A DNA stretch of 64,000 nucleotides from an uncultured Alphaproteobacteria bacterium (GCA_902541435.1 CACBQR010000002.1:515-64514); one strand, 5' to 3'. Shown: positions 1-19,887, numbered from the stretch's first letter. Made by a program: numbers and translations. The notes: a model not told the origin generated them from the letters alone.

Positions 1-501
1 ATCAAAAATGAAGATACGCATCAATTAGCTGATGGAAGGAAAGTACTGATTACACACGGAGATGAATTTGATGCTGTGATCATTAATGCGAGGTGGTTAG
101 CCAAAGTGGGATCAGCACTTTATGAATATTTACTAAAGTTAAATAATGTATTTAATTTTATTCGACGAAAGATGGGCTTGTCTTACTGGTCACTGTCTCA
201 ATATTTAAAAAAGAAAACAAAGCATGCAACTAACTTTATTAGTAATTTTGAGTTTGCTGTATCTGATAGAGCTAGAAGAGAAAATGCCGATGTTGTTGTA
301 TGTGGGCATATACATAGACCAGAAATAAAAGAATTAAATGGTGTTCTCTATTGTAATGATGGTGACTGGATTGAAAGTTGTACAGCACTTGTTGAAGATG
401 AAATTGGCAATTTATCAATTCTTAATTGGCCCGAAGAAAGAGAAAATTTAAAATTAATTTCTTTAGAAGAAAGACGAAAAATAAAAGAGGATGCAGCCTA
501 A
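1..501 (+). CDS. plcP: PlcP-like metallophosphoesterase (LpxH / UDP-2,3-diacylglucosamine diphosphatase family), 5'-truncated by window edge
   Basis: Frame 1 is open from nt 1 (IKNEDTHQLADGRKVLITHGDEFDAV...). It aligns along its length with the C-terminal ~165 aa of the complete 268-aa paralog at 6941-7747 (HGDEFD, VVCGHIH, NDGDW). It overlaps the downstream GT gene by 11 nt. Confidence 0.85.
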   Translation: MKNEDTHQLADGRKVLITHGDEFDAVIINARWLAKVGSALYEYLLKLNNVFNFIRRKMGLSYWSLSQYLKKKTKHATNFISNFEFAVSDRARRENADVVVCGHIHRPEIKELNGVLYCNDGDWIESCTALVEDEIGNLSILNWPEERENLKLISLEERRKIKEDAA

Positions 502-1492
502 AAAAATCGCATTAATTAGTGATGCGTGGGTTCCTCAGGTAAATGGCGTAGTTACGACATTTCAAAGCGTTATACCTATTCTAGAAAAAAAAGGTTTTGA
601 AATTAAAATATTACATCCTGAGATGTTTAATAATTTTAGTTATCCTAGGTACAAAGAAATAAAGATTTCTTACAACACTAAGAAAGTTACTGAAAAATTT
701 TTTAAAGAATTTAATCCAGATATTGTTCATATAATGACTGAAGGTCCAGTAGGTTTTGCTGGTCGTAAGTACTGTCTTAAAAATAAACTACAATATACTT
801 CTTCCTTTCACACTCGTTTTCCTGACTACATTAAGCAAAGAGCTTTTATCCCAAAGAGATTTACTTATTCCATATTAAGAAAACTACATAGTGATTCTGA
901 AAAAGTTCTTGTTCCATCAGTTTCAATGCTAAATGAGTTAAAAAAATATAATTTTAAAAATTTAGTAGTTTGGAACAGAGGTGTTGATACAGAATTATTT
1001 AATCCAAATAAAAGAGACACAAACAGTAAAGATAGACAACTGACTTATGTTGGAAGAGTAGCAATTGAAAAAAATATTGAAGAATTTTTAAAACTTAAAG
1101 GAAATTATAATAAAATAGTTGTGGGGGATGGTCCTGAATTAGAAAAATATACTAATAAGTATCCTGAAGTAAATTTTGTTGGTTTAAAAACCGGAGAAGA
1201 ATTAGCAAAGTATTATGCAAACGCAGATGTGTTTGTATTTCCTTCTAAAACAGACACTTTAGGAAATGTAATACTTGAAGCATTGGCTAGTGGAACACCA
1301 GTTGCTGCATATCCAGTAACTGGGCCTATAGATGTATTAACAGATGAGAAGATTAACACTTTAGATAATGACTTATTACAATCAATTAAAAAAGCGCTTA
1401 AAGTAAAAAGGGTTGATTGTAGAAATTTTACACTTAATTTAACATGGGATAAATGCGTGAAAGAATTTTTAGAATACATGGTAAACGTCTAG
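491..1492 (+). CDS. GT4-family glycosyltransferase (Agt-like glycolipid synthase candidate), copy 1
   Basis: 333 aa. N-terminus has SDAW.PQVNGVV. C-terminus has the EKNI...GDGPE...FVFPS.TDT.GNV.LEA.ASG.PV GT-B retaining-GT signature. Roughly 60% aa identity by eye to 5949-6944. Coupled to the PlcP-like gene. Confidence 0.85.
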   Translation: MQPKKIALISDAWVPQVNGVVTTFQSVIPILEKKGFEIKILHPEMFNNFSYPRYKEIKISYNTKKVTEKFFKEFNPDIVHIMTEGPVGFAGRKYCLKNKLQYTSSFHTRFPDYIKQRAFIPKRFTYSILRKLHSDSEKVLVPSVSMLNELKKYNFKNLVVWNRGVDTELFNPNKRDTNSKDRQLTYVGRVAIEKNIEEFLKLKGNYNKIVVGDGPELEKYTNKYPEVNFVGLKTGEELAKYYANADVFVFPSKTDTLGNVILEALASGTPVAAYPVTGPIDVLTDEKINTLDNDLLQSIKKALKVKRVDCRNFTLNLTWDKCVKEFLEYMVNV

Positions 1493-1512
1493 TTATTTAG
1501 GGTAATTTTGTA

Positions 1513-2169
1513 ATGACATATTCTTTAAGACAAAAAATACTAGCAGAATTTATTGGGACATATTTTCTTGTACTAACAGTTGTAGGTAGTGGAATTATGG
1601 GAGAGTTAATGTCAAATGACCTTGGTATAATATTACTAGGAAACACAATTGCAACAGGTGCCATTTTATTTGTAATTATTTCTATGTTTATTAATATCTC
1701 AGGGGCATACTTTAATCCTGCTGTTGTATTAAGTGATATTATTCAAAAAAATATTCCTATTAATTATGGAATAATTTTTATTTTTACTCAGATTATTGCT
1801 GGTATATTTGGTTGTTTAACTGCAAATTGGTATTTTGAATATCCCATAATTGAATGGTCACTCAATGAAAGAGTTGGTGTATTTAAATTCTTTTCAGAAA
1901 TAATTGCAACTGTTGGATTATTATTAACTATTTTTATATTAAAAGAGGTAAACAAGGAAAGAATAGCTATTGGTGTCGCTCTATTTATTACTGCAGGATA
2001 TTGGTTTACATCATCAACAAGTTTTGCAAATCCAGCAGTAACCATAGGAAGAATGTTTACAGATAGTTTTAGTGGAATAAGTCCATCAAGCGTTATAGGT
2101 TTTATTTTAGCTCAGATTATTGGGGCTCTTATTGCTACAGTTACTGTTAGATTGTTTTTTAAAAATTAA
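1513..2169 (+). CDS. MIP-family channel (aquaporin/aquaglyceroporin-like)
   Basis: 218 aa and hydrophobic, with two NPA boxes (YFNPAV and FANPAVTIGR) in the expected half-repeats. Confidence 0.85.
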   Translation: MTYSLRQKILAEFIGTYFLVLTVVGSGIMGELMSNDLGIILLGNTIATGAILFVIISMFINISGAYFNPAVVLSDIIQKNIPINYGIIFIFTQIIAGIFGCLTANWYFEYPIIEWSLNERVGVFKFFSEIIATVGLLLTIFILKEVNKERIAIGVALFITAGYWFTSSTSFANPAVTIGRMFTDSFSGISPSSVIGFILAQIIGALIATVTVRLFFKN

Positions 2170-3071
2170 TTCAACATATCATGTAAATAACCTTCACGAA
2201 TTCCATATCTTACAAAAATAATATTTTTAATATTATAAAATGAAGCAAGGCTAAATAAAATATATGTAGATAATTTTAATTTATCTAATCGATTTGGTTG
2301 GACAACATTCAATTTTTTAATTTGTTTTTTATCCATAGAGTATAATTTGTGATAGAATATTTCTAACTCTGAAAATGGTATCAGGTAGCCATGTAGTTTA
2401 TTTTTCTTGATGCCATTTAGATGTAAATGTAGTTTTGCAAGATTGCGCCACATGCCTCCAATAACATAAATATTTCCGACGTTTTTAGAAAATTTAAGAG
2501 ATTGGTTTTTAAATTTCGAAAATAAAAAATTATCAAATTTAATTTTAGTAGTTTTGTACATATCAGATTCACTTCTTAAGATGCCAATTTTTAAACTTTT
2601 AGTCTCAAGTATGTTCTTATTTTTTATAGTACTAAGTTCTAAACTTCCACCTCCCAAGTCTGCAACTAAACCGATTGGATTTTTTATTGAACTAATTACA
2701 CCTAGGGATCCACATTTAGCCTCATTTTTTGGTGAGAGCACTTCTACTCTTACTGACTTTCTTTTCTTGAAAGGCTCAATAATTTCTTTTCCATTTATTG
2801 TTTCACGAATTGCGGCCGTTGCAATTATATGAATATCTAAGGACTCATAATCTTTTGCAATCTTAATATATTCTTCTAAGCATTTTATAGCTTCTTTTAT
2901 TTTTATCGATGGGAGTTTACCTGTGTTAATACTTTCACCTAATTTTAAAAATTCTCTTTTTTGATAAAGTATTGGAAAAGGATAAATAGCTTGCTCATAT
3001 ATAACCAGTCTAAATGTATTAGAACCTAGATCAATCACTGTTATGGGATTTTTGTTTTTCATTTTAGCCAT
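2166..3071 (-). CDS. ppx: Ppx/GppA-family phosphatase (exopolyphosphatase-like, short form)
   Basis: 301 aa. N-terminal ITVIDLGSNTFRLVIYE and DLGGGSLEL match ASKHA-fold Ppx/GppA motifs. 4-nt convergent overlap with the MIP gene. Confidence 0.75.
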   Translation of the reverse strand: MAKMKNKNPITVIDLGSNTFRLVIYEQAIYPFPILYQKREFLKLGESINTGKLPSIKIKEAIKCLEEYIKIAKDYESLDIHIIATAAIRETINGKEIIEPFKKRKSVRVEVLSPKNEAKCGSLGVISSIKNPIGLVADLGGGSLELSTIKNKNILETKSLKIGILRSESDMYKTTKIKFDNFLFSKFKNQSLKFSKNVGNIYVIGGMWRNLAKLHLHLNGIKKNKLHGYLIPFSELEIFYHKLYSMDKKQIKKLNVVQPNRLDKLKLSTYILFSLASFYNIKNIIFVRYGIREGYLHDMLN

Positions 3072-3103
3072 GGAAATGTATATATCTAAAGTATTAAACT
3101 CGA

Positions 3104-3562
3104 ATGCTACAAGTTTATTTATTACGTCATGCCAAATCTAGTTGGGATAATTTAGAGCTTGATGACATTGATAGACCTCTCAATAAAAGAGGTATGAGAA
3201 ATGCAAAACAATTTTCTAAAATATTAGATAAAAGAAAATTTCAAATTGGTCAGATAATATGTTCTCCTTCTAAAAGAACAACTAGCACATATAATATAAT
3301 TTCTAACTCGTTTGATCGCTCAGTAAAATTTACAATTGATAACGATATTTATGAATGTCCATCAAATATACTTGTAAGAAAAATTAAAAAATTAAAAAAA
3401 AATACTCTTATCATTGGACACAACCCTAGTTTGATAGAGTCAATTAATATTTTATGTAATTCAAATATTGAACATTTTCCAACCTGTGCTTTTGCTATAA
3501 TATCCTTTAAAAATAGCTGGACTATTGATAAAATTTTAAAACCAAAAAATAAAAATTATTAA
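3104..3562 (+). CDS. sixA: SixA-like phosphohistidine phosphatase (histidine phosphatase superfamily)
   Basis: 152 aa. N-terminal LLRHAKS (RH catalytic motif), D.DRPL..RG, later GHNP. Confidence 0.7.
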   Translation: MLQVYLLRHAKSSWDNLELDDIDRPLNKRGMRNAKQFSKILDKRKFQIGQIICSPSKRTTSTYNIISNSFDRSVKFTIDNDIYECPSNILVRKIKKLKKNTLIIGHNPSLIESINILCNSNIEHFPTCAFAIISFKNSWTIDKILKPKNKNY

Positions 3563-3622
3563 AGAAATATGAATTTTTTATGAACATGTTTTTTTTATAC
3601 CTAAAAAATATAAAAAAAAATT

Positions 3623-5722
3623 ATGTTAAAAAAAAATACCGCTTATAACTATGCAAACAGGGAATTGTCTTGGCTAAAATTCAATGAAAGAGTCTTAAGT
3701 CAGACATCTGATAGTAAAATTCCACTTTTAGAAAGGGTTAGATTTTTATCAATAGCATTCTCTAATTTAGATGAATTTTTTATGGTTAGAGTAGCAGGAT
3801 TGAATGTTCAAAAATTTTCACGAAATAAAAGTTTTGATGGATTAACACCACAACAACAACTCAAGCTGATAGATAAAGAAACATCGAAGATGATTTCAAA
3901 TATAAAATCAATATGGATAGATTTACTAAGAGAGCTTTCAGAAAACAAAATCCATATAGATGTAGAAAAAACACTGAAAACAAAAGATAAAACATTTATT
4001 AAAAATTATTTAGAAGAAAATAATTGGGGGGTTTTAACGCCAATTATTATTGATCCATCTCACCCATTTCCTTTTATACCAAATAAAGAAACAACCTTAG
4101 TATGTCGTTTAATGAATAATAAAAAAACTTTTTATGGAATACTAAGAGTGCCAGAGGGATTAGAAAAATTTATTAAATTACCTGGTAAAAAAACACGTTT
4201 TGTATCTATGGAGACAGCCCTACTTATTTCTTTAAAAGAAATTTTCCAGTGTGATAGGGTTTTGGATAAAGGTGTTTTTAGACCAATTAGGAATAGTGAA
4301 TTAGAATTAGGGGGTGAAGGAGAAGATTTATTTTTAGTATTTCAAAAAGCTATTTTTGAGAGAAGAAGACAAGAGGTAATAAGAATTGATTTTGATGAAA
4401 GTATATCTAGTCACTTAATTAAATTCATAAATAAAAAACTTAACTATAAGGATGTAAATACATATAAACTGCCAATACCCGTTAATCTTTCGAGTATAGA
4501 GTCAATTTTTTTGAAAGATTTTAAAAAATTATTTTTTCCAAAATTTAAGGTACGATTTCCTGAAAGAATTAAAGATTTTAAAAATGATTATTTTAAAGCT
4601 ATAGCAAATAAAGATATTGTTATTCATCACCCTTTTGAATCTTTTGAAGTAGTGACGCAGTTTATTGATCAAGCTGCAGATGATCCAAAAGTCTTATCAA
4701 TAAAACATACTTTATATCGAACTACTGATGACTCACCAATAGAAGCAAGTTTAGTTAGAGCAGCACAAAAAGGAAAATTAGTAACTGTCATTATAGAGTT
4801 GCAAGCACGTTTTGATGAAGAGCGTAACTTAAAATGGGCAAAAGAATTAGAATTAGCTGGAGCGCAAGTTGTTTTTGGCAATATTGATATGAAAACTCAT
4901 GCAAAAATTACACTTGTAACAAGGAAGCAAATGAATTCTGTTGTAAATTACGCACATTATGGAACAGGTAATTATCACCCGAGAAATGCAAGAGTTTATA
5001 TGGATTTATCTTACTTCACCTGTGACAAAACATTAACAAATGATGCTGCAAAAATGTTTAATTATTTAACTAGTTATTCTGAACCAACAACAATAAAAAA
5101 AATAGTATATTCTCCAATAACTGCAAGAAACAAATTAAATGAACTAATTAGAAATGAAATTACAAATGCTGGAAAAAATAAACCATCTGGAATAGTATGT
5201 AAGTGTAATGCTCTTGTTGATAAACAAATTATTGATGAATTTTATAAAGCATCTCAAAAAAATGTAAAAATTGAATTGTTGATAAGAGGAATTTGCTCTC
5301 TAATACCTGGTAAAGAAAATCTATCAGAAAATATAGTTGTTAAAAGCATAATTGGTCGTTTTTTAGAACATACGAGAATATATTGTTTTTATAATGGTCA
5401 TAAATTCCCTCATAGAAAAAATATCTTGTTTATTTCTTCTGCCGATTTAATGCAAAGAAATCTAGATAGGCGGGTTGAAACATTTATTCCTATTGAAAAT
5501 GAAACTGTACATGAACAAATATTAAATCAGATTTTAATTGCCAGTATGACAGATAATACAAATTCTTGGCAAATGTTAAGTAATGGCAATTATCAGAAAA
5601 AAGAAATATCAAGCAAAGAGAAAAAATTTTCCTCTCACAATTTTTTTATCAAAAATCCAAGCTTGTCTGGGAGGGGTTCAGCAAAACTCAAATCTAGAGC
5701 TAAGTCTAATTTAAAAATTTGA
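3623..5722 (+). CDS. ppk: polyphosphate kinase 1
   Basis: 699 aa. N-terminal NRELSWLKFNERVL, a central THAKITLV and C-terminal RFLEHTRIY PLD-like motifs are typical of Ppk1. Confidence 0.95.
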   Translation: MLKKNTAYNYANRELSWLKFNERVLSQTSDSKIPLLERVRFLSIAFSNLDEFFMVRVAGLNVQKFSRNKSFDGLTPQQQLKLIDKETSKMISNIKSIWIDLLRELSENKIHIDVEKTLKTKDKTFIKNYLEENNWGVLTPIIIDPSHPFPFIPNKETTLVCRLMNNKKTFYGILRVPEGLEKFIKLPGKKTRFVSMETALLISLKEIFQCDRVLDKGVFRPIRNSELELGGEGEDLFLVFQKAIFERRRQEVIRIDFDESISSHLIKFINKKLNYKDVNTYKLPIPVNLSSIESIFLKDFKKLFFPKFKVRFPERIKDFKNDYFKAIANKDIVIHHPFESFEVVTQFIDQAADDPKVLSIKHTLYRTTDDSPIEASLVRAAQKGKLVTVIIELQARFDEERNLKWAKELELAGAQVVFGNIDMKTHAKITLVTRKQMNSVVNYAHYGTGNYHPRNARVYMDLSYFTCDKTLTNDAAKMFNYLTSYSEPTTIKKIVYSPITARNKLNELIRNEITNAGKNKPSGIVCKCNALVDKQIIDEFYKASQKNVKIELLIRGICSLIPGKENLSENIVVKSIIGRFLEHTRIYCFYNGHKFPHRKNILFISSADLMQRNLDRRVETFIPIENETVHEQILNQILIASMTDNTNSWQMLSNGNYQKKEISSKEKKFSSHNFFIKNPSLSGRGSAKLKSRAKSNLKI

Positions 5723-5731
5723 AAATAGAAT

Positions 5732-5929
5732 TTAATCCCACTCACAATAATTGGACATAAGCAGGAAGAAATAATACTGCGAGTGGTAAGATGTAATTAA
5801 ATTTTATTTTTTACAGACGTGTTAATAGAATATTAAATTTTTATAAATTAAACTAATTTTTTAATTTATTGGTTTTCAAATAAATTTTTTAGTTCCTTCA
5901 ATTTTTGAAAATTGAATCTCTTACTTCTT
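5732..5929. repeat. Direct repeat copy 1 (~198 bp), homologous to 8743-8940; holds a hairpin plus a degenerate arsC 3' end
   Basis: By-eye alignment with 8743-8940 gives roughly 80-90% identity and few indels. The left edge nearly abuts the ppk stop (5722). The right edge lies 19 nt from the GT stop codon. Confidence 0.85.
5872..5929 (-). pseudogene. Relic of the 3' end of an arsC-like gene (frameshifted fragment)
   Basis: The reverse complement reads EVRDSIF then, after a 1-nt deletion, LKELKNLFEN in a shifted frame. The intact arsC C-terminus at 8880-8940 reads EVRDSIFDKLKELKNLFEN*. Confidence 0.6.
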
Positions 5930-5948
5930 AGTAACTATAATTTTAAAA

Positions 5949-6944
5949 TTAATTTTTTGCATTTACAACATTTGATAGAAATTGATTTGCACATTTATCC
6001 CAAGTAAATTGCATTGCAAATTTTCTACAATCTTTTCTATCAATCTTTAAGGCTTTATTAAGTGAGTTTTCAATATTATTATCAAGGCTATCAATTAATG
6101 AGTTTTCTAAAATATCTTTAGGACCTGTTACTGGGTAAGCAGCCACTGGTGTGCCAGAGGCTAAAGACTCTAAAATTACATTTCCAAATGTATCTGTTTT
6201 GGATGGGAATACCAATGCTTCAGCATTTGCATAATAGTTTGCTAGGTCTTGACCTTTTTTCATCCCAACGAAAGACACATATGGATATTTATTTTGTAAT
6301 CGTTGCTTTTCTGGACCATCTCCAACAACAATTTTATGCATCTTAGTTCTTATTTCTAAAAACGCTTCGATGTTTTTTTCTAATGAAACCCTACCAATGT
6401 AAACAATATACTTTTTCATTCCCTTTTTTCTTTTTAAAGGATTAAATAATTCAGTATTAACTCCCCTTGACCAAATTTTAAGATTTTGAAATTGATATTT
6501 AGTTAATTCGTTACGCATAGATATTGTTGGGACCAATACATTACATGCATTTTTATGAAAATTTTTTAAAAAAGAGTACCCAATTATTTTTGGTATCATT
6601 ATTCTTTGCTCTATATATTCTGGAAATCTCGTATGAAAAGAGGTTGTATATCTCAACTTATTATTCTCACAGAATTTTTTCCCCGCAATTCCAACTGGTC
6701 CTTCAGTGGCAATATGTATAACATCTGGATCATAATCACCAAAAAATTTTTCTGTTATTTTTTTTGTATTAATTGCTATTTTTATTTCCTTATACCAAGG
6801 ATAACTAAAATTAGTAAACATCATTGGGTGGAGTACTTCAATTTGATACTTTTGTTTTAAAAATGGATTAATATGTTGGTATGTATTTACCACACCATTA
6901 ACTTGGGGAAGCCAAGCATCGGTAATGATCGCTAATTTTTTCAC
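5949..6944 (-). CDS. GT4-family glycosyltransferase (Agt-like), copy 2
   Basis: 331 aa, collinear with 491-1492 (TDAWLPQVNGVV..., VVGDGPE, FPSKTDTFGNVILESLASGTPVAAYPVTGP). 4-nt overlap with the upstream PlcP-like gene. Confidence 0.85.
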   Translation of the reverse strand: MKKLAIITDAWLPQVNGVVNTYQHINPFLKQKYQIEVLHPMMFTNFSYPWYKEIKIAINTKKITEKFFGDYDPDVIHIATEGPVGIAGKKFCENNKLRYTTSFHTRFPEYIEQRIMIPKIIGYSFLKNFHKNACNVLVPTISMRNELTKYQFQNLKIWSRGVNTELFNPLKRKKGMKKYIVYIGRVSLEKNIEAFLEIRTKMHKIVVGDGPEKQRLQNKYPYVSFVGMKKGQDLANYYANAEALVFPSKTDTFGNVILESLASGTPVAAYPVTGPKDILENSLIDSLDNNIENSLNKALKIDRKDCRKFAMQFTWDKCANQFLSNVVNAKN

Positions 6945-7747
6945 ACTAATACACTTTCTGCTAGTTTGTTATGTTTATGTTGAAAAATTTTTTCTCTTTC
7001 AATTGACCAGTCAATAAGGGATAATTGTCCCTCATTATTTTCCACTAGTGCAGAACAACTCTCAACCCAATCACCATCATTGCAATATAAAACTCCATTT
7101 AATTTTTTTATAATGGGCTTATGAATATGGCCGCACACAACAACATCAGCATTTGCTCTTTTAGCACTATCAGATACGGCAAACTCAAAGTTAGAAATAA
7201 AATTCGTGGCTCTTTTTGTTTGATGTTTGAGAAATTGAGATAATGACCAATAAGATAGACCTAGTTTTCTTCTGACAAAATTTAGATAGTTATTCAACTT
7301 TAATATAAATTCGTATAGAGATGACCCAATACTTGCCAGCCATTTAGCGTTTAATATAACTGCATCAAATTCATCACCATGTAAAACAAGGGCATTTCTT
7401 CCATCAGCTAATTTGTGTGTAAACTTATTTTTTATTGATATATTCCCTAGTGAAAAACTTGTGTAACTTTTCACAAGTTCGTCATGATTACCTGGGATAA
7501 ATATTACTTTTGTACCTTTTCTTGCTTTACGCAAAATCTTCTGGATAATGTCATTATGAGTTTGATGCCAATAAATTTTTTTTTTCATTCTCCATGCATC
7601 AATAATATCGCCAACTAAAAATAAATATTTTGAATCTGTTGATCTCAAAAATTCAAGAAGCATTTCACTCTTGCTATTTTCTGTTCCAAGATGAAGATCA
7701 GATATCCATATAGTTCTATAATATGAAACTGATTGCTGATCTTTCAT
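6941..7747 (-). CDS. plcP: PlcP-like metallophosphoesterase (LpxH family), complete copy 2
   Basis: 268 aa. Calcineurin-like motifs ISDLHLG, VGDIIDAW, PGNHDE, HGDEFD, CGHIH, NDGDW. Gene pairing with a GT matches the phosphate-starvation phospholipase C/glycolipid module known from marine bacteria. Confidence 0.85.
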   Translation of the reverse strand: MKDQQSVSYYRTIWISDLHLGTENSKSEMLLEFLRSTDSKYLFLVGDIIDAWRMKKKIYWHQTHNDIIQKILRKARKGTKVIFIPGNHDELVKSYTSFSLGNISIKNKFTHKLADGRNALVLHGDEFDAVILNAKWLASIGSSLYEFILKLNNYLNFVRRKLGLSYWSLSQFLKHQTKRATNFISNFEFAVSDSAKRANADVVVCGHIHKPIIKKLNGVLYCNDGDWVESCSALVENNEGQLSLIDWSIEREKIFQHKHNKLAESVLV

Positions 7748-7825
7748 TTTATTAATAAATAATAGAAAGAATTTGTTAAAATTTTATTTCAATTACATTA
7801 ACTAAATTTTTTTTTTACAGAAGTA

Positions 7826-8668
7826 TTAATTAAATATTGAGTTTTTATTACTTGGATCTAATCTATAAGTGCTATTCCTTAAAAATTTTGTAATCTCAAT
7901 AAGATTGCCAATTTCTTTTATGGTTTCAAAGGGTATTCTTTGTCCAATATGAACATCAATTTTTTTTCCCATTCTTCTTTTAAGTTCATATATCATTAAA
8001 GAATATCGAAAGACTTGCCCAATTTTATCAGCAACATGAAAAAGTTCGCTATTTTGTCCTTCAAAAAAAATTGGGAGGACAGGTGATTGAGTTTTCATTA
8101 TTATTTTTGAAGTAAATTGTTTCCATTCACGATCTATTGCTTTGATTCCTTTTTTTAATTTTGGTTTCGTTGAAACTGATCCTGATGGAAAAATGATTAG
8201 TGCCCCATTATTTCTTAAGTGTTCTTCGCATTCTTTACGTGCAGCGATATTATTTATTAAAGCATTTCTATTTTTTGAAAAATCAAGAGGAATAATTTTA
8301 TTCTTAATAAGATCTGCTCCTTGTAAAACTTTATGCGTAATAATTTTGTAATCTTGTCTAATTTTACTAATTAAAGAGCATATTGTAAGACCATCAGCTA
8401 TTCCAAATGCATGGTTAGCGATTACTACAAGTTTGCCATTTTTAGGAATATTACTTTTAGAATGATAATGTGTCTGAATACGGAGACCTAATCTTTCAAT
8501 TGCATCATGCCAAAAATTCTCTGGAGGTAAATTTTCTCTTAAATAATCCTCATACAACTTACGTAACTTAATTTTACCCGTTCCCAATTCGGTTAATTGA
8601 ATAATAATCTTTCCAACAGGATTAACTTCGGAGTTAGAAAAGGTAAGCGCTGGTTTATTAATTTTCAT
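7826..8668 (-). CDS. lysophospholipid (PlsC/OlsA-like) acyltransferase family protein
   Basis: 280 aa. HX4D-type motif NHAFGIADG and a downstream FPSGSVS block are typical of glycerolipid/aminolipid O-acyltransferases. Confidence 0.7.
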   Translation of the reverse strand: MKINKPALTFSNSEVNPVGKIIIQLTELGTGKIKLRKLYEDYLRENLPPENFWHDAIERLGLRIQTHYHSKSNIPKNGKLVVIANHAFGIADGLTICSLISKIRQDYKIITHKVLQGADLIKNKIIPLDFSKNRNALINNIAARKECEEHLRNNGALIIFPSGSVSTKPKLKKGIKAIDREWKQFTSKIIMKTQSPVLPIFFEGQNSELFHVADKIGQVFRYSLMIYELKRRMGKKIDVHIGQRIPFETIKEIGNLIEITKFLRNSTYRLDPSNKNSIFN

Positions 8669-8742
8669 AAAATTTACTTTAAATTCTTAATTTTATAATG
8701 TTAAACAATTGTTAAAGTACTCGAAAAAGGAGAAATAAAAAA

Positions 8743-8940
8743 TTAATCCCACTCACAATTATTGGTAATTAGCAGGAGGAAATAATACTGTGAGTGGTAA
8801 GAAACATTTAAATTTTATTGTTTACAAATAGATTAATGGAATATTAAATTTTTATAAATTTAATTAATTTTTAACTTCATTAATTCTCAAATAAATTTTT
8901 TAGTTCTTTCAATTTATCAAAAATTGAATCTCTTACTTCT
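8743..8940. repeat. Direct repeat copy 2 (~198 bp); overlaps the genuine 3' end of arsC
   Basis: See copy 1. Contains hairpin 8749-8797 and the last ~20 codons of arsC. Confidence 0.85.
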
Positions 8941-9299
8941 CTAAATTTATCTAATTGGTTTGAATTAAAATGATCTGATGCCGGATCATCAAATGGTATT
9001 GAAAATATCTGAGCTTTGGAATTTAAAACTGGACATACCTCTTCTTTACAAAGCGTAAAAACGGTATTTAATTCATCTCTGAATTTGTTGTCTAAACTTT
9101 CAAAATCTTTTGAATAATGTTTTGATATATCAATATCGATTTCACCCATAACCTCGATAGCATTAGGATTAACTTCTTTGGGCACTGATCCTGCACTTTG
9201 AATAATGCAATTAGGATATAATTTTTTTGCAATTCCTTCAGCCATTTGACTTCTTGCTGAATTAGCAACACACATAAAAAGAATATTTTTATTTTTCAT
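8880..9299 (-). CDS. arsC: arsenate reductase, LMW-PTP (thioredoxin-coupled) type
   Basis: 139 aa. CVANSARSQMAEG is a CX5R(S) P-loop near the N-terminus. Two further Cys lie in LCKEEVCP. Confidence 0.8.
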   Translation of the reverse strand: MKNKNILFMCVANSARSQMAEGIAKKLYPNCIIQSAGSVPKEVNPNAIEVMGEIDIDISKHYSKDFESLDNKFRDELNTVFTLCKEEVCPVLNSKAQIFSIPFDDPASDHFNSNQLDKFREVRDSIFDKLKELKNLFEN

Positions 9300-9523
9300 G
9301 TTAGCAAATAAATATATCCAAAAATAAATAGTGGGAGTTGTAAACCAAAGTTTGTGAGCAGAGCTCTATCTTTTGTCATATAACCAACAATTGACCAACC
9401 AACAGCACCTGTACCGTGAATAATTATGTTAATTGGATACGCATTTAAATTGGTTAATAATATTCCTGATAAAATTAACGCGGTGCTAAACCACTTAATT
9501 CTATTAATTGATAAATCTGTCAT
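9296..9523 (-). CDS. small hydrophobic membrane protein (about 3 predicted TM segments), unknown function
   Basis: 75 aa, three hydrophobic stretches, 4-nt overlap with the arsC start. No recognisable motif. Confidence 0.45.
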   Translation of the reverse strand: MTDLSINRIKWFSTALILSGILLTNLNAYPINIIIHGTGAVGWSIVGYMTKDRALLTNFGLQLPLFIFGYIYLLT

Positions 9524-9579
9524 ATCTTCTCCTAAATTCTATAGATTGCGAATATTACACTTTACTTAAAGATAAAGAT

Positions 9580-9607
9580 ATTAATCAAATTGTAACAAAA
9601 ATTTAAC
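9580..9607 (+). promoter_or_regulatory. Candidate Pho-box-like element (three direct hexamers at 11-bp spacing)
   Basis: ATTAAT(9580) / TGTAAC(9591) / TTTAAC(9602), each followed by an A/T spacer, about 40 nt upstream of the DUF47-PiT start. The architecture resembles 7+4 bp PhoB boxes. Confidence 0.35.
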
Positions 9608-9646
9608 ATTTCTTTCTTTTTTTTTGAAAAGTTCTATAAGCACTCC

Positions 9647-10309
9647 ATGTTTGGATTAAAAAGTGCATCATTATTTGGTGATACCAAAAAGCTTGAAAGA
9701 GAAATTGATGAGTTTGTTGATATTGTCTCTGAAGTGGGCTTAGTATTTAAATCGATAGTTCCAACTTATCTCAATCATTCTGCCAATGGTAAATTTGAGG
9801 AAATGGTTGAAAAAGTAAAAGAAATGGAAAGTAAGGCTGACAAAATTACGAAAGATGTTGAGCATACTCTTTATGAAGAAACACTAATCCCAGATGCAAG
9901 AAGTGATGTGTTACGACTTCTAGAACACATCGACGAATTAATTGGAATGTACCAAGGGAATTGTTATCACTTCTCTATTCAAAAACCTAATTTTCCAAAA
10001 GAGTTTCACCAAGATTTAATTGAGTTAACAGAGACAGTTGTAAACTGTGTTGAGTCACTTTGTTTGACTGTCCGATCATTTTTTAGAGATATTAAATCTG
10101 TTAGAGATAATGCTCATAAAGTAACTTTTTATGAAAAAGAATCTGATATAAAATTTAGTTCTCTTGCAAGAAGAATTTTTGATTCTGAATTACCTCTAGA
10201 TCAAAAAATGCATCTTCGTTATTTTGTAGAGAAGATTGATCGTATTTGTGATCAAGCAGAAGACATAGCTGACGAGGTTCAAATTTACGCTATTAAACGT
10301 TCCGTTTAA
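9647..10309 (+). CDS. DUF47 / TIGR00153-type PhoU-like phosphate-transport regulator
   Basis: 220 aa helical protein directly preceding a PiT transporter, which is the canonical pairing. The C-terminal D.ADE...Y ending is typical of the family. Confidence 0.75.
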   Translation: MFGLKSASLFGDTKKLEREIDEFVDIVSEVGLVFKSIVPTYLNHSANGKFEEMVEKVKEMESKADKITKDVEHTLYEETLIPDARSDVLRLLEHIDELIGMYQGNCYHFSIQKPNFPKEFHQDLIELTETVVNCVESLCLTVRSFFRDIKSVRDNAHKVTFYEKESDIKFSSLARRIFDSELPLDQKMHLRYFVEKIDRICDQAEDIADEVQIYAIKRSV

Positions 10310-10315
10310 TTTTCA

Positions 10316-11368
10316 ATGGAAATTACAATTCTAATTTTTTTATTTGGTGGTCTTTTTTTAGGTTGGTCACTTGGCGCCAATGATGCAGCAAATGTTTTTG
10401 GAACTGCAGTTGGAACACGAATGGTTAGTTTCACAAGTGCAGCAATAATTTGTAGTGTCTTTGTTATTCTAGGTGCAATTATTAGCGGAGCAGGCACAAC
10501 AGAAACTTTAGGTAAGTTAGGTGCTATTAATGCATTGCCTGGTGCTTTTGCAGCATGTGTGGCTGCGGGAATATCTGTATATTTAATGACCAAAGTTGGC
10601 TTGCCTGTTTCAACAACGCAAGCGATTGTTGGAGCAATTGTTGGTTGGAATTTATACACGGGATCTTCAACTAATCTTCAAGTTTTAATTACTATTTTAG
10701 GAACATGGATACTCTGTCCTATTATTGCAGGAGTTATTGCAATGGGTTTATTTACTTTTACAAAAAGAGTTATACTCAATAGAAAGTTACATATTCTCAG
10801 ACTTGATGCCTATACAAGAACAGCTTTACTTTTAGCGGGTACTTTTGGTGCTTATAGTTTAGGTGCAAACAATATTGCCAATGTAATGGGTGTCTTCGTA
10901 CCTATATCACCGTTTACTGATGTTACTATTGGAAATTTATTTGTCTTTTCCTCAAAAGAACAATTATTTCTTCTAGGTGGTTTAGCAATAGCTGTTGGTG
11001 TTTTTACTTACTCGAAAAGAGTTATGTTTACCGTTGGTAATGATCTCTTAAAAATGACACCAGTGGCAGCATTTATTGTTGTTATATCGCATTCTATTGT
11101 TTTATTTTTATTTGCATCCCAGGGTATAAGTGCTTTTTTACAATCTATAAATCTTCCCTCTATACCTTTGGTACCAGTATCAAGTTCCCAAGCTGTTGTC
11201 GGCGGCGTAATTGGAATTGGTCTTTTAAAAGGAGGAAAAGAGGTTCAATGGTCAATTGCAGGTAGAATTTCTTTGGGTTGGATGACGCTACCTATAATTG
11301 CAGCTTTAATTTCTTTAATTGTTTTATTTATTCTAGAAAATATTTTTAATTTAACGGTCTCTTTTTAA
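10316..11368 (+). CDS. pit: inorganic phosphate transporter, PiT family
   Basis: 350 aa polytopic. GANDAANVFGTAVG in the first half and GANNIANVMG in the second half are PiT signature repeats. Confidence 0.9.
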   Translation: MEITILIFLFGGLFLGWSLGANDAANVFGTAVGTRMVSFTSAAIICSVFVILGAIISGAGTTETLGKLGAINALPGAFAACVAAGISVYLMTKVGLPVSTTQAIVGAIVGWNLYTGSSTNLQVLITILGTWILCPIIAGVIAMGLFTFTKRVILNRKLHILRLDAYTRTALLLAGTFGAYSLGANNIANVMGVFVPISPFTDVTIGNLFVFSSKEQLFLLGGLAIAVGVFTYSKRVMFTVGNDLLKMTPVAAFIVVISHSIVLFLFASQGISAFLQSINLPSIPLVPVSSSQAVVGGVIGIGLLKGGKEVQWSIAGRISLGWMTLPIIAALISLIVLFILENIFNLTVSF

Positions 11369-11889
11369 TTAACTGCTCGATAAGAAAAAATAAAATCTTC
11401 TTGGATTTTTGACTCAATAGCTCCTTTTCTTCTTGCTCGCACTAGATCAATAGCTTCTTGTTTTTCATAATTAAATTCAACAAGTAAAATAGCAGCTATA
11501 GTGCCAGCTCTTCCTTTTCCTCCACGGCAATGTAAAACTATGTTTTTACCATCTATCAATTCGTTCTTTAATAAAACTTTTGTTGTTTCCCATTTATATT
11601 TAAAATCTTTATCTGGTGCTCCCATGTCATAAATGGGTAAATGGTACCAATGTAATTTATGTTCATAAATATTTTTGACAAACAAAGTTTTATCACACAA
11701 TTTTTCAAATTCGCTATCTTCAACAAAAGAAGTAATAGAACTACAATTATTATTTTTAAATATTTCTAATTCGTTTGCTAAAATTGTTTCTTCAAATAAA
11801 CCATTAGAGTTAAGACCTGGGAAAGAAGTTAATATAATTTTGCCTGCAAATGACTTAGAGTCAATAAAATCATAATTGCTAAATTGCAT
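11365..11889 (-). CDS. Cys-based (dual-specificity/CDKN3-like) protein phosphatase family protein
   Basis: 174 aa. HCRGGKGRAGT is a CX5R P-loop with an upstream D (YDMGAPD). The start codon directly abuts the stop of the phnZ-like gene (TAAATG on the minus strand). Confidence 0.75.
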   Translation of the reverse strand: MQFSNYDFIDSKSFAGKIILTSFPGLNSNGLFEETILANELEIFKNNNCSSITSFVEDSEFEKLCDKTLFVKNIYEHKLHWYHLPIYDMGAPDKDFKYKWETTKVLLKNELIDGKNIVLHCRGGKGRAGTIAAILLVEFNYEKQEAIDLVRARRKGAIESKIQEDFIFSYRAVN

Positions 11890-12465
11890 TTACGCTTGTT
11901 TAGCTAAAAAAGACTGTCTTGCTTCTTCTAAATAGGGGCGGAAATGTTCAACATCGGGAGTTTTTTTATCTAGAATTTTTGCTAAATCATCAAATCTTCT
12001 AAGCTCTACTGCTTCATCCATAAAAGGTTTGCTTATAAACGCATCTGCTTCTTCTTTTGTGAAAGGACCACCTTGAACTTTTAACGAAAGTTTCGATGCT
12101 TCTGATAGACTATCATAATAACCTTCTTCAACACTTGATAAATATCTTTTTGAGTCAACATGTGCTCTAATTGGTAGAATAACATCCTCACCAAAATATT
12201 TTTTTAAAAAATCAGCACCTAAATTTTCATGATGACCATCTTTCCCTTCATGAATGGGATCGCCGTCCTCATAGATAAGGTGGCCAACATCATGCAGTAA
12301 TGCTGCAGCAATTGTTGGTCCTGGTAATTTATGTTTTTCAGCAAGTTCAGCACATTGGAGTGCGTGCTCAAGCTGGGTCACATCCTCATTACCATATTGA
12401 ATATCAGCACCTTTTGTTTTCAAAAGATGTAAGAGATAGTCTACAATATTTTCTTCCATTTTCAT
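11890..12465 (-). CDS. phnZ: PhnZ-family HD-domain (mixed-valent diiron) oxygenase, phosphonate C-P cleaving type
   Basis: 191 aa. QLEHALQCA, AALLHDVGH, HHENLGADFL, AHVDSKRYL and GGPF match the H...HD...H...H...D ligand pattern and spacing of PhnZ/TmpB-type proteins. Confidence 0.75.
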   Translation of the reverse strand: MKMEENIVDYLLHLLKTKGADIQYGNEDVTQLEHALQCAELAEKHKLPGPTIAAALLHDVGHLIYEDGDPIHEGKDGHHENLGADFLKKYFGEDVILPIRAHVDSKRYLSSVEEGYYDSLSEASKLSLKVQGGPFTKEEADAFISKPFMDEAVELRRFDDLAKILDKKTPDVEHFRPYLEEARQSFLAKQA

Positions 12466-12553
12466 TTATAATTAACTTATTAGAAAATAAATTCAATTCC
12501 AACTTTAATAAGATTGATCAAATTTATAATAATATTTATTAAGTAAATATTTA

Positions 12554-13651
12554 ATGGATAAAAAATTATTAACCCCTGGTCCTCTCACGACATCGATGTC
12601 AACAAAAGAGGCTATGCTTCATGATTGGGGTTCGAGAGATACAAAATTTATTGATCTCAATGCATCAATTAGAGATTCCCTTGTTAAATTAATAGACGGT
12701 GAAGATAAATATCAATGTGTTCCAATGCAGGGAAGTGGAACTTTTGCCGTAGAGTCGATGGTAAGCTCTCTTACTCAAAAAGATTCTAAAATTCTGATTC
12801 TGATCAATGGTGCTTACGGACAAAGAATGAAAAAAATGTGCACATATTTAGGGAGAGATTTTATTGAATATGAAGTTGCTGAACATGAAGTACATGACAT
12901 CAATAAAATTGAAGACTTAATTGATAGCAACAACTTAACACACGTCTTTGCCGTATATTGTGAAACAACATCGGGTATTTTAAATCCTATTGAAGACATT
13001 GCAAAATTGGTTGAGGGGAAAAATTTATCGTTATTCATCGATGCAATGAGTGCCTTTGGTGCATTACCCTTAAGTTCTAAAACAATTACTTTTGATGCTG
13101 TAGCCGCTTCATCAAACAAATGCTTAGAAGGTGTGCCAGGTGTTGGTTTCATTCTTGTTAAAAATGAAGTTATTCAAAATGCAAAAGGCAATAGTCACTC
13201 ACTAAGTCTAGACTTGTATGATCAATGGCAAGCAATGGAAAAAAATAAACAATGGCGATTTACACCTCCAACACACGTATTAGCTGCATTCAACCAAGCT
13301 ATTGAAGAACATAAAGAACAAGGCGGTGTAAAAGGAAGAGGTAAAAGATATAAAAAAAATTGTGAAATTATTTGTAATGGAATGAAAGAGTTGGGATTTG
13401 AGCAACTACTTCCTGATAATTTACAAGCACCAATTATTATTACGTTTAAACAACCTAATGATCCTAAATTTAACTTTGAGAAATTTTATAATGCTCTTAG
13501 TGAAAAAGATTTTTTAATTTATCCAGGAAAACTAACAGTGGCAGAAACTTTTAGAATTGGGTGTATTGGTAATTTAGATGAACAAGACATGATGGATACA
13601 ATAAAAGCTGTAAAAGAAGTCGTTACTGAATTGGGATTAACATTAAACTAA
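12554..13651 (+). CDS. phnW: 2-aminoethylphosphonate--pyruvate transaminase
   Basis: 365 aa. LLTPGPLTTS, YCETTSGILNP, SSNKCLEGVPG (PLP Lys), WRFTPPTH, FRIGCIG. Confidence 0.9.
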   Translation: MDKKLLTPGPLTTSMSTKEAMLHDWGSRDTKFIDLNASIRDSLVKLIDGEDKYQCVPMQGSGTFAVESMVSSLTQKDSKILILINGAYGQRMKKMCTYLGRDFIEYEVAEHEVHDINKIEDLIDSNNLTHVFAVYCETTSGILNPIEDIAKLVEGKNLSLFIDAMSAFGALPLSSKTITFDAVAASSNKCLEGVPGVGFILVKNEVIQNAKGNSHSLSLDLYDQWQAMEKNKQWRFTPPTHVLAAFNQAIEEHKEQGGVKGRGKRYKKNCEIICNGMKELGFEQLLPDNLQAPIIITFKQPNDPKFNFEKFYNALSEKDFLIYPGKLTVAETFRIGCIGNLDEQDMMDTIKAVKEVVTELGLTLN

Positions 13652-13658
13652 CAAAATA

Positions 13659-14291
13659 ATGACAAAAGAAATTGAAATACCATTAGTTAAAGCAACAAAT
13701 GAAAATCTTAAAGGATACGGATATTTAATCGATAGTTTTGAAAATAGTGATATTGAAATTGTTACTTGGCCAAAACAAGGATGGCGCGACATAGAAGAGG
13801 GAACTGGTAATGAAGGTGGAACTACCGAAGGTTCTTTTGATACCTGGTGGCAAGGTGATGTGCTTTATGGACAAAATAATGCTGTCCAACATAAGAGCGA
13901 TTATGAAGTAGATGGAAAATATATACTGGGTTATGCCAATAACCCCGATCAAGAATTGCAAAAAGATAAATATTCAGATCCAACAAAAATATTTCTATGG
14001 CATGCAAATTATCATCCTGATGGAGGTCAGCTTTTTTTTCCTGCAGAAAATAAACCATTTATTTGTCCTTTAGCTTTACCAACAGACGACATCGAACCAG
14101 AACATTTCAAAGCATTTTATTGTGATGGATCAAAAGGTTTGTATATTCATCCAAACATTTGGCATGAAGGGGTGTTTCCAGTTAAAGAAAAACAATCATT
14201 TCATGGAAAACAAGGTAAAGTACATGCAAGAGTTAGCATCGACTTAAAAGAGGAATTTAATAAGTATATTTATTTTAAAACTGCGATCTAA
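13659..14291 (+). CDS. ureidoglycolate lyase (AllA)-like beta-barrel protein, function here unknown
   Basis: 210 aa. N-terminal L..AT.ENLKGYGYLI, NYHPDGGQLFFP and GLYIHPNIWHEGVF parallel AllA blocks (AYG.VI, ERHP...Q.F.P, GVNYH..VWH.P). 7 nt downstream of phnW. Confidence 0.5.
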   Translation: MTKEIEIPLVKATNENLKGYGYLIDSFENSDIEIVTWPKQGWRDIEEGTGNEGGTTEGSFDTWWQGDVLYGQNNAVQHKSDYEVDGKYILGYANNPDQELQKDKYSDPTKIFLWHANYHPDGGQLFFPAENKPFICPLALPTDDIEPEHFKAFYCDGSKGLYIHPNIWHEGVFPVKEKQSFHGKQGKVHARVSIDLKEEFNKYIYFKTAI

Positions 14292-14311
14292 TTATAAATT
14301 TGTATAAAATA

Positions 14312-15100
14312 ATGAAAATTATTCATCTTTCAGACCCTCATATTTATATAGATAAGATTCATGGCATAGATCCTGTCAGTAAATTTAAAAAAGCATTAAG
14401 TCATATAAAAAATAATCATGGTGATGCAGATTTATTTGCCATCACTGGCGATATTACAGACTTAGGTGATAAAGATTCTTATCAGTTATTTATAAAAATC
14501 ATTGATGAAGCAGAGCTGCCAAAGAATTTAAATCCTCAACTCATTATAGGTAATCATGATAACAGAGATGAGTTTAAAATAAACTTTCCTAATATTGAAA
14601 CCGATCCAAATGGCTTTATTCAATACTTTAAGGATATAGATAATAAACGTTTAATTTTTATAGATACTAATCTGATTAATACTCACCAAGGACATTACTG
14701 TGAAGAGAGGCAAGAATGGTTAAATAATATTTTAGGTAAAACTAATACAGATACGTACATCTTTATGCATCATAATCCACTGGCATTAGTAAAAGAGGAA
14801 AGTGATGGAATAGGATTACAACAAAAAAAAGAGTTTCAACAAATTTTAACTAAAAATAATAAGATAATAAAACATATTTTTTTTGGTCATCAACACATTA
14901 CAAGTTCTGGTTCTTATTGTGGTATTACTTTTTCCTCCCCAAGAAGTACTTGGTCTCCTCTAATACCTAACTTTTCAAATGAATATCGTTTAGGAACGGC
15001 TAATACAGATACAAATTATAATGTTGCAATAATTCGATCTGACGCCTTAATTATTCATACAGAGGATTTTTTAAAAACAGAAGTTAATTGGTTTAAATAA
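14312..15100 (+). CDS. GpdQ/CpdA-like metallophosphoesterase (phosphodiesterase)
   Basis: Motifs HLSDPH, GDITDLG, GNHDN, FMHH and GHQH appear in GpdQ-like order. The ATG at 14312 is preferred over the TTG at 14300 reported by the ORF track. Confidence 0.75.
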   Translation: MKIIHLSDPHIYIDKIHGIDPVSKFKKALSHIKNNHGDADLFAITGDITDLGDKDSYQLFIKIIDEAELPKNLNPQLIIGNHDNRDEFKINFPNIETDPNGFIQYFKDIDNKRLIFIDTNLINTHQGHYCEERQEWLNNILGKTNTDTYIFMHHNPLALVKEESDGIGLQQKKEFQQILTKNNKIIKHIFFGHQHITSSGSYCGITFSSPRSTWSPLIPNFSNEYRLGTANTDTNYNVAIIRSDALIIHTEDFLKTEVNWFK

Positions 15101-15104
15101 AAAA

Positions 15105-16211: not shown

Positions 16212-16213
16212 TA

Positions 16214-17326: not shown

Positions 17327-17330
17327 TACA

Positions 17331-18410: not shown

Positions 18411-18442
18411 CTATTTTTACTCCCATTTAAATTTAAAATAAA

Positions 18443-18467
18443 ACAGCGGCTTTTATAAAGCCGCTGT
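18443..18467 (-). terminator. Rho-independent terminator downstream of the SBP gene
   Basis: ACAGCGGC-loop-GCCGCTGT (8-bp GC-rich stem), followed on the minus strand by TTTTATTTT. Confidence 0.7.
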
Positions 18468-18497
18468 AATAAAAAGTTAATAATAAATAATCTCAAA

Positions 18498-19751: not shown

Positions 19752-19802
19752 TTAATCCCTCCGATTCAAATATAATATTAAACTAACACGTAGCCTCAAA
19801 GG

Positions 19803-19830: not shown

Positions 19831-19887
19831 AAAAAATAAGCTTATTTTTCCACAGCATTAAGAAAAATTAGAGAAAAACTGGTTTAT

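Follow-up and report, generated by a model that had tools for sequence, protein, structure and literature searches.

The window, a stretch of 64,000 nucleotides from one strand of the DNA of an uncultured Alphaproteobacteria bacterium (GCA_902541435.1, CACBQR010000002.1:515-64514), has a G+C content of 31% and contains two direct repeats that bracket three genes between the polyphosphate kinase gene ppk and the arsenate reductase-like gene arsC. We consider it likely that these repeats are the scar of a homology-anchored insertion that required no recombinase, was built up in several steps, and took place at an ancestral ppk/arsC terminator junction in the known phosphate island of HIMB59. All coordinates refer to the window unless another locus is named, and L0xx and L1xx denote related loci fetched from genome, single-cell amplified genome (SAG), metagenome-assembled genome (MAG) and metagenome collections; the structures of the alleles are written with arsC on the plus strand in all loci. 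The right anchor gene, ppk (polyphosphate kinase 1; 3623-5722, plus strand), has four Pfam PPK domains. The left anchor gene, arsC (8880-9299, minus strand), matches Pfam LMWPc and, below the cut-off, the NCBIfam model for arsenate reductase (thioredoxin) (1e-26). Between the anchors and on the minus strand lie agt (5949-6944; Pfam GT4/GT1), a plcP-like metallophosphoesterase gene (6941-7747; Pfam Metallophos, with an LpxH-like NCBIfam match below the cut-off) and acylT, which encodes an HX4D acyltransferase (7826-8668; Pfam PF19576 and PF01553) that resembles the N-terminal domain of OlsF and GlsA (NCBIfam 5.8e-42 and 2.4e-25, respectively, both below the cut-off). We refer to acylT, together with a gene that accompanies it in some relatives (p470), as module M1, and to plcP-agt as module M2. 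By homology, the cargo would serve PlcP-Agt lipid remodelling together with aminolipid-type O-acylation.

A blastn comparison of positions 5600-6000 with 8600-9000 returned one dominant alignment, in which 5713-5928 and 8724-8940 are 83.4% identical over 217 columns (35 mismatches and one gap; E 8.6e-64). The local score of this alignment is 144, compared with a mean of ~20 and a maximum of 30 for Markov-1 shuffles; random 400-nt segments drawn from this AT-rich window have a mean of ~15 and a maximum of 25. In addition, a repeat search recovered 199 nt ungapped at 82% with the copies spaced 3011/3012 apart, and a MAFFT alignment agrees. Strong homology runs from ~5732/8743 to 5929/8940 and tapers across the 20 nt closest to ppk; at the arsC-proximal edge, beyond the 1-nt indel, a block of 21 nt is identical in both copies (5908-5928 = 8920-8940). 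Repeat copy 2 (8724-8940, minus strand) adjoins arsC and contains the functional final 20 codons of this gene (a3, ending in EVRDSIFDKLKELKNLFEN and the stop codon), followed by divergent versions of a spacer (S) and a hairpin (T). Repeat copy 1 (5713-5929, minus strand) adjoins ppk and contains S and T of the resident type of junction, together with a relic of the arsC 3′ end (a3′; 5866-5929, minus strand). The last ~20 codons are decaying in this relic, and its minus-strand translation reads EVRDSIF in one frame and LKELKNLFENQ plus a stop codon in the next, owing to a 1-nt deletion at ~5905-5907. The window allele is represented by L081 (a GORG single-cell assembly contig identical to the window), L082 and L083. 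Because three independent single-cell assemblies share this arrangement, and two further SAGs and two metagenome contigs have homologous ones, the repeats are not an artefact. A preliminary description of this DNA had reported direct repeats of ~198 bp, 3011 bp apart and 80-90% identical by eye, with the real arsC end in copy 2, its frameshifted relic in copy 1, and the acyltransferase, PlcP-like and glycosyltransferase (GT) genes enclosed on the minus strand. The pairwise alignment that it had called for lies far above random AT-rich DNA, and translation and gene calls recovered the remaining features just as described.

Comparison with relatives suggests that the repeats are two diverged alleles of the junction that stand side by side and not one sequence that was copied. 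The spacer of copy 1 is 95% identical to that of L088, in which arsC and ppk are directly convergent, and 92% identical to that of L087, whereas the spacer of copy 2 is 83% identical to L088 and no more than 84% identical to any allele save copy 2 of L084 (100%). Likewise, hairpin identity to L088 is 95% for copy 1 and 90% for copy 2, and the copy 2 hairpin is no more than 90% identical to every other allele save copy 2 of L084. The density of mismatches between the window and L088 is ~2% in the body of arsC and ~1% in ppk; copy 1 has 6-9% and copy 2 has ~17% along its length, and the switch from ~2% to ~17% occurs at roughly 8930-8890. In L084, the divergent tract extends ~280 nt past the patch into arsC. 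Copy 1 is accordingly the resident allele over its whole length, and the spacer and hairpin of copy 2 are a divergent allele, which would be foreign.

The far side of copy 1 ends abruptly. The joint between the agt side and the arsC relic (5929/5930), with TAGTTACTA on one side and A or G followed by AAGTAAGAG on the other, is common to the relics of the window, L084, L095 and L098. The relic is in frame in L084, L095 and L098, and that of L098 is identical to the functional arsC end of L088 at 58/60 positions. The decay of the relic differs between loci, with a frameshift in the window, a lost stop codon in L084 and an intact relic in L098. The shared joint and the match between the L098 relic and L088 therefore point to one ancestral illegitimate joint in a resident-type junction, followed by independent decay of the relic. 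An abrupt joint on this side and a gradual switch within arsC (~8930-8965) on the other have the form of one homologous exchange plus one abrupt joint. Because the copies are not reciprocal chimeras, we place no crossover inside the spacer or the hairpin; the homologous exchange must, on this comparison, have occurred at the extreme arsC edge of the patch, deeper in arsC, or in a ppk 3′ end (k3) that has since been lost from the window. That k3 is a possible site of exchange is marked by L084, in which 57 nt of the ppk 3′ end survive as a relic. The repeats left by the separate events differ in length (57, ~200 and ~217 nt) and in their ends, and the 21-nt block at the arsC edge is conserved coding sequence.

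The junction without a cassette exists in three relatives. In L001, a distant MAG (ppk 75% identical), ppk and arsC are separated by a 142-nt spacer with an orthologous hairpin. In the single-cell assembly L088 (arsC 97%, ppk 99.7% amino acid identity; left flank 97-100% identical to the window at the nucleotide level), arsC is directly convergent with ppk, and the same holds for the single-cell assembly L101 (arsC 98%; junction at 8360-8590), whose junction is a hybrid. The convergent junction, which the preliminary description had proposed as ancestral and had suggested be compared among relatives, is thus confirmed, and the presence/absence polymorphism that it predicted is real, with the L088 and L101 empty sites occurring in the same population. 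Filled alleles form a series. L087 has acylT only (arsC-S-T-U-acylT-[last ~20 p470 codons]-hairpin2-ppk, where U is the region upstream of acylT). Four genes are present in L084 and L085 (arsC-[a3 S T U]-acylT-[S′ U″]-p470-hairpin2-[57-nt ppk 3′ relic]-X-plcP-agt-[a3′ S T]-ppk). The three-gene form of the window and L081-L083 equals the L084 form minus exactly 1772 bp, that is, p470 and the ppk relic, with 3-4 nt of microhomology at the joint (7804/7805). L095, a metagenome contig, carries acylT-p470-[57-nt ppk 3′ relic]-plcP-agt, as do L084 and L085, and its left flank is replaced. The entire arsC-side flank of the cassette has given way to an operon for a ugpB-ugpA-ugpE-like ABC transporter (ugpEAB; L095 1-3500), with a breakpoint 6 nt after the copy-2 hairpin, and no arsC was found within 3.5 kb upstream of acylT in this locus, though the arsC relic persists beside ppk. 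In L086, acylT-[full S + hairpin]-p470 is located elsewhere in the genome, with neither arsC nor ppk. Finally, L089-94, L102 and L103 have no ppk block, and arsC is convergent with MIP. In L102 (880-900) and L103, in which arsC is 94% identical, the gap between arsC and MIP is 7 nt, and both loci lack the spacer and the hairpin as well as ppk, sixA and ppx.

The range of these comparisons was set by the searches. The ppk search of the genome collection yielded one informative relative, L001, all other matches being at most 49% identical, and the agt search of metagenomes yielded L095 as the single relevant locus. The window ppk is only 47% identical to that of Pelagibacteraceae SAGs, in which the gene order differs and ppk is not beside arsC. 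A syntenic relative of arsC (68%) is present in SAG-MED31, which is placed in HIMB59 / GCA-002718135 by the table of Molina-Pardines et al. (2023; PMC10734472).

Because acylT occurs alone in L087, acylT and p470 occur away from the junction in L086, and p470 is present in L084, the three genes comprise at least two modules, M1 and M2, and the window form is secondarily reduced. The three genes were not acquired as one cassette in one event, as the preliminary description had supposed; L087 has the acyltransferase alone, and L084, L085 and L095 have the additional p470. If J is defined as the junction from 20 codons before the arsC stop through to 14 codons before the ppk stop, then L084 resolves into arsC-[a3 S T (M1) k3]-M2-[a3′ S T k3]-ppk, with the whole of J flanking M2 on both sides. 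In the left J copy, M1 separates the hairpin from the ppk stop, and M2 is bordered by the ppk 3′ relic on one side and the arsC 3′ relic on the other. The ppk relic (L084 12386-12442), which comprises the last 14 codons and the stop, directly follows the p470 hairpin GAAGCTGGATATATTCCAGCTTC and marks an older p470><ppk junction. Moreover, a third, partial copy of the spacer, S′ (7803-7868, minus strand), overlaps the acyltransferase stop and is 75-78% identical to the S copies of L084 (blastn). At the same position, L086 has a full S plus hairpin; S-T-U is thus found on both sides of acylT, full in L086 and with the hairpin deleted in L084 and the window. The acyltransferase reading frame passes the conserved C-terminus of its family (...LDPS) by seven codons (NKNSIFN; 7826-7850), which lie within S-like sequence, so the native stop was replaced at the joint. 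At least three joints are therefore clustered around one terminator, all within a few hundred bases. Region X (12443-12637), which lies upstream of plcP in L084, matched none of the fetched loci and contains no convincing open reading frame (ORF).

Traces of later recombination are also found. The L101 junction has L088-type arsC codons, then a copy-2-type stop and the first 25 nt of S, and copy-1-type sequence thereafter. Such a hybrid would be the expected footprint of recombination between copy 2 and copy 1, with loss of the cassette, or of exchange between a filled and an empty allele. It is the single hybrid copy that recombination between repeats leaves behind, and recombination allele by allele gives the same result; in either case, it indicates that repeats or alleles do recombine. 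In addition, the window and L084 are mosaics of each other, and identical tracts (8899-8500, one mismatch) alternate with tracts of 5-10 mismatches per 100 nt. No Pfam family of the integrase or transposase type was found among the called genes within ±10 kb of L081, L084, L085, L087, L088 or L089-94, and no tRNA was found in the window at 1-20000, so that the claim of the preliminary description that no integrase or transposase is present holds within ±10 kb of the cassette in window-type and variant loci.

The hairpin shared by the repeats has an 11-12 bp stem and a loop of 25-27 nt (5738-5786 and 8749-8797). Copy 1 (5729-5794, minus strand; stem 5738-5749 / 5775-5786) follows the ppk stop at 5722 and lies ~160 nt downstream of the agt stop; copy 2 (8740-8804, minus strand; stem 8749-8759 / 8787-8797) lies downstream of the arsC stop at 8880 and upstream of acylT. 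On the minus strand, the folds have energies of -18.5 and -15.1 kcal/mol and z-scores against shuffles of -3.95 and -2.86, and the covariance model R1 scores them at 80.4 and 81.1 bits, respectively. Every relative examined has an orthologous hairpin after arsC, the arsC><MIP genomes included, and compensatory changes are present in 3/11 stem pairs across relatives. In L001, T-rich runs extend beyond the hairpin on both strands as read from the sequence. By position and structure, we infer that hairpin T acts as a bidirectional terminator. Region U (8669-8723, minus strand) extends from the hairpin to the acyltransferase start, and contains TTTAACA-N4-TTTAACA at 8699-8716 and a sigma-70-like site at 8704-8676. 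It is kept upstream of acylT in L084, L087 and L095, and a homologous region, U″, lies upstream of p470; U is probably the promoter of the cassette.

Several further observations concern these elements. The hairpin loops (5750-5775 and 8760-8786) contain UUUC(C/U)UCCU on the arsC strand and AGGAGGAAA on the ppk strand, and the former motif is conserved in the window, L086, L087 and L001 and absent from L089. A small ORF with a Shine-Dalgarno sequence was considered for the loop and rejected, as no ORF that goes with the AGGAGG of the ppk strand is conserved between the copies. The hairpin was also considered as a dispersed repeat and rejected, as its covariance model matched only the junction copies in 420 kb (the window and 20 related loci). 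Neither a whole-window Rfam search at gathering thresholds nor an E-value search of 5600-9000 matched the hairpin, giving weak snoRNA noise only, and the viral collection gave no match to it. The TTTAACA repeat has a 7+4+7, Pho-box-like spacing. A degenerate version occurs in spacer S at 5820-5837, and a version with one mismatch occurs at 9591-9608 (plus strand), 39 nt upstream of PhoU_div-Pit.

According to the mechanism that we favour, convergent ppk and arsC genes would originally have shared one spacer and one long-loop hairpin. Copy 1, contiguous with ppk, would be this resident junction, and copy 2 would have arrived with the foreign DNA and would now complete arsC. Each gain would have combined one homologous exchange in the arsC or ppk flank with one illegitimate joint. 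The incoming DNA may have been linear, a route for which we have a slight preference at something short of even confidence, or it may have been a circularised fragment that integrated Campbell-style, to which we give somewhat less credence. The lean towards linear entry comes from the divergent tract past the repeat in L084 and from the purely resident type of copy 1. A circular intermediate is possible and is not required, as linear DNA would produce this structure through one homologous crossover and one illegitimate joint, and each route would need two illegitimate joints overall. The window lineage then lost 1772 bp through a microhomology deletion, giving the three-gene form, and the flanking repeats and alleles keep recombining and yield the empty, hybrid-empty and partly filled alleles of the same population. 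After insertion, the copy 1 hairpin would terminate ppk and agt, the copy 2 hairpin would terminate arsC, and U would drive the cassette. If the hairpins still terminate transcription on both sides, this would explain why the spacer and hairpin of copy 1 are retained while its arsC codons decay.

Homology-facilitated illegitimate recombination, in which linear DNA is anchored by homology on one side and joined illegitimately on the other, is known from naturally transformable bacteria. The gradual switch in arsC and the abrupt joint at 5929/5930 resemble this process, which requires no recombinase. Its classic outcome is the replacement or deletion of recipient DNA; here, unlike in that outcome, the joint is on the anchor side of the point where homology ends, which preserves the resident junction and creates a repeat. 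A more speculative extension, which we put forward tentatively and regard as rather doubtful, is that the junction, consisting of the last ~15-20 codons of arsC and ppk and their shared hairpin, is a reusable docking site at which modules are stacked without a recombinase. Each incoming module would carry or gain part of the junction, its insertion would restore an intact junction, and acylT, p470 and plcP-agt would stack in this way. The direct repeats would then allow RecA-type recombination to release modules as circles able to enter other cells.

The alternative that survives best is the one given in the preliminary description, in which a single circular DNA with the three genes and a ~200-bp patch integrated at the empty junction by one Campbell crossover inside the patch. 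Much of the locus has the look of such an integration. Direct repeats of the shared segment flank the insert, the site is single-copy and empty in L088, L101 and L001, and the target gene is intact as the patch includes its 3′ end. The 21-nt perfect block sits at the arsC-proximal edge of the repeat, and the event would be reversible by recombination between the repeats, with the L101 hybrid as the leftover of excision. The empty site of L088 also fits, and the duplication of the whole junction around plcP-agt in L084 fits a circle that crossed over in the 57-nt ppk end. These parts of the model are supported. The single event is not supported, given that the three genes have separate histories in L087, L084 and L086 and several nested events are required. 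Nor are the copies reciprocal chimeras; the switch in copy 2 lies left of 8928 and, in L084, well inside arsC, so that a crossover inside the patch is confined to its first ~12 nt and the ~280-nt divergent tract beyond the patch is left over. Furthermore, a circle could bear the patch only if a comparable structure had existed before. We therefore consider one Campbell crossover unlikely.

An intragenomic origin is improbable. Under this explanation, slippage or unequal sister exchange would have duplicated the junction in tandem, genes would have been inserted later, and copy 2 would have diverged in place. L084 can indeed be written as junction-M2-junction′, S-T-U is repeated around acylT, and another lineage (L099) has tandem plcP-agt pairs. 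Duplicates of equal age should be about equidistant from L088, however, and the spacers are 95% (copy 1) and 83% (copy 2) identical to it; copy-2-type sequence is also present in the cassette-free L101 and so circulates as an allele, and a separate illegitimate insertion would still be required for each module. A site-specific element, such as an integrase island or a tycheposon-like or integron-like element that attached at the hairpin or at the 3′ ends of the genes and whose recombinase is located elsewhere or lost, is more improbable still. A restored target 3′ end with the displaced end left as a relic is the classic appearance of integrative elements, a conserved hairpin stands between successive genes (arsC and acylT; acylT and p470 in L086; agt and ppk), and breakpoints fall at the edge of the hairpin (6 nt after it in L095/L084; at the hairpin tail for M1). 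However, no variant has an integrase or transposase Pfam family within ±10 kb, positions 1-20000 contain no tRNA, the lengths of the repeats (57, ~200 and ~217 nt) appear to follow the extent of shared homology and not a fixed core, and the hairpin has neither further copies in the 420 kb nor a match among viral contigs or in Rfam. Chance resemblance, convergent regulatory sequence or chimerism could also be invoked: the window has 31% G+C, the spacer contains promoter-like and Pho-box-like motifs, and the assemblies, judging from the published SAG table and the accession series, come from single-cell amplified genomes, which can carry chimeric joins. This explanation is refuted by the strength of the alignment (E 8.6e-64; score 144, with no null score above 30), by recognisable arsC coding sequence inside the repeat, and by the same joints in at least five SAGs and two metagenome contigs.

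Certain points weigh against the stepwise, homology-anchored insertion that we prefer. No native context of the B-type plcP-agt pair, that is, no donor, was found with the one usable metagenome locus, the nearest others being 60-67% identical, and the joints between agt and a3′ (5929/5930) and between the ppk relic and X (L084) have no donor with which microhomology could be compared. Copy 2 may have diverged in part because a spacer close to a promoter evolves faster, and not through import. As repeat-mediated deletions and allele swaps can regenerate simpler forms, L087 or L088 could be derived alleles and not ancestral ones. With respect to the regulatory elements, a consensus terminator scan did not call hairpin T, whose loop exceeds 8 nt, and the Pho-box idea for U was dropped, as the count of TTTAACA-N4-TTTAACA in the window is not above chance; the proposed roles of T and U are read from position and structure alone.

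The window contains a second, core copy of plcP-agt (pair A; 1-1492, plus strand), in which plcP is cut by the start of the window. It lies on the opposite side of MIP-ppx-sixA-ppk and is inverted with respect to the cassette copy, pair B. The two pairs are ~68% identical at the nucleotide level, with 61% amino acid identity between agt and its paralogue at 491-1492 and 73% between plcP and its partial paralogue at 1-501, and pair A is present in L088 and L102, which lack pair B. B-type agt homologues of at least 90% identity are found only beside ppk, and the next relatives, of the same order, are at 60-67%; M2 therefore seems to have come from a related, unsampled lineage. In another lineage, L099 and L100 (3-3642) have two tandem plcP-agt pairs followed by MIP, ppx, sixA and ppk, which indicates that paralogous plcP-agt pairs arise repeatedly in the island. 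In L082 (5457-6453), agt of pair B is split into ORFs of 241 and 88 aa, and ppx is split in L088 (13218-14119); pseudogenisation or an error of single-cell assembly could account for each. The p470 protein of M1 (L084 10951-12363; also L085, L095 and L086) matches neither Pfam nor NCBIfam; its 470 aa include a hydrophobic stretch at the N-terminus and are rich in Gly and acidic residues. Beyond arsC, PhoU_div-Pit is found in the window at 9647-11368 between a dual-specificity phosphatase gene and DUF6552 and is absent from L085 (9107-9146), a further indel polymorphism in the same island.

The locus is a known kind of event, a homology-dependent insertion scar, in a known variable island, seen at unusual resolution. 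The HIMB59 phosphate flexible genomic island, fGIp, has been described in versions A-H that track phosphate concentration, phosphate-stress genes being more numerous where phosphate is at its lowest (Molina-Pardines et al., 2023; PMC10734472). As in fGIp, of which it would be a version H-like form, the region analysed here has ppk, SixA, Ppx/GppA, GlpF/MIP, a gene of the low-molecular-weight (LMW) tyrosine-phosphatase type, and an 'LpxH'-type metallophosphoesterase with GT4, both with core paralogues; a SET methyltransferase gene, phoR and the pst operon adjoin it, here just outside the window; and Pit is common in the family GCA-002718135. Gene content also differs at a fixed position between cells of one population (L082, L087, L088, L089-94), as it does in fGIp. 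The published account infers homologous recombination only from the absence of insertion sequence (IS) and tRNA hallmarks, and it is given at the level of gene content, with no mention of direct repeats, gene-end relics or joints; the acyltransferase and p470 are not in its description of fGIp (PMC10734472). Furthermore, in contrast to simple replacement, the fine structure here consists of additive nested insertions and deletions. PlcP-Agt lipid remodelling is established from work on marine heterotrophs, SAR11 and Phaeobacter among them (Sebastian et al., 2016, PMC4796936; Wei et al., 2021, PMC8231724). The present genes resemble that system in the metallophosphoesterase with its overlapping GT4 gene and in their association with Pho-regulated genes, and differ from it in an amino acid identity of only ~45% to the recovered Pelagibacteraceae pairs and in having two or more paralogous pairs per genome.

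A comparison can also be drawn with the nutrient-stress islands of another streamlined marine bacterium. The tycheposons and tRNA-targeting islands of Prochlorococcus reportedly use tyrosine recombinases and tRNA genes, are said to carry nutrient-stress cargo that includes phosphorus genes, and are reported to have arrays of partial target-gene repeats that mark successive insertions. The locus shares with them the nutrient-stress cargo and the target-end repeats left by successive insertions at one hotspot; unlike them, it has no recombinase within ±10 kb and no tRNA at 1-20000, and its repeats are the 3′ ends of protein genes plus a terminator, variable in length.

Streamlined ocean bacteria such as SAR11 and HIMB59 have almost no mobile elements, yet they have many versions of nutrient-stress islands, and the entry and exit of genes in such islands has mostly been inferred from missing hallmarks. 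This locus supplies evidence at the level of sequence. One population contains empty, hybrid-empty, one-gene, three-gene, four-gene and left-flank-replaced alleles, which are linked by common joints, by 3′-end relics of both flanking genes and by mosaic tracts. The linked series indicates additive gain at the terminator of convergent genes through homology and occasional illegitimate joints, with repeats that permit loss. It also serves as a warning that such repeats are paired alleles and not simple duplications, and it makes 'exchange by homologous recombination' testable in long-read metagenomes. If the docking-site reading is true, it would provide a general mechanism, based on homology only, by which cassettes make flexible islands grow and shrink in streamlined marine bacteria that are poor in mobile elements, and the relics of gene ends could be read as a log of insertions.

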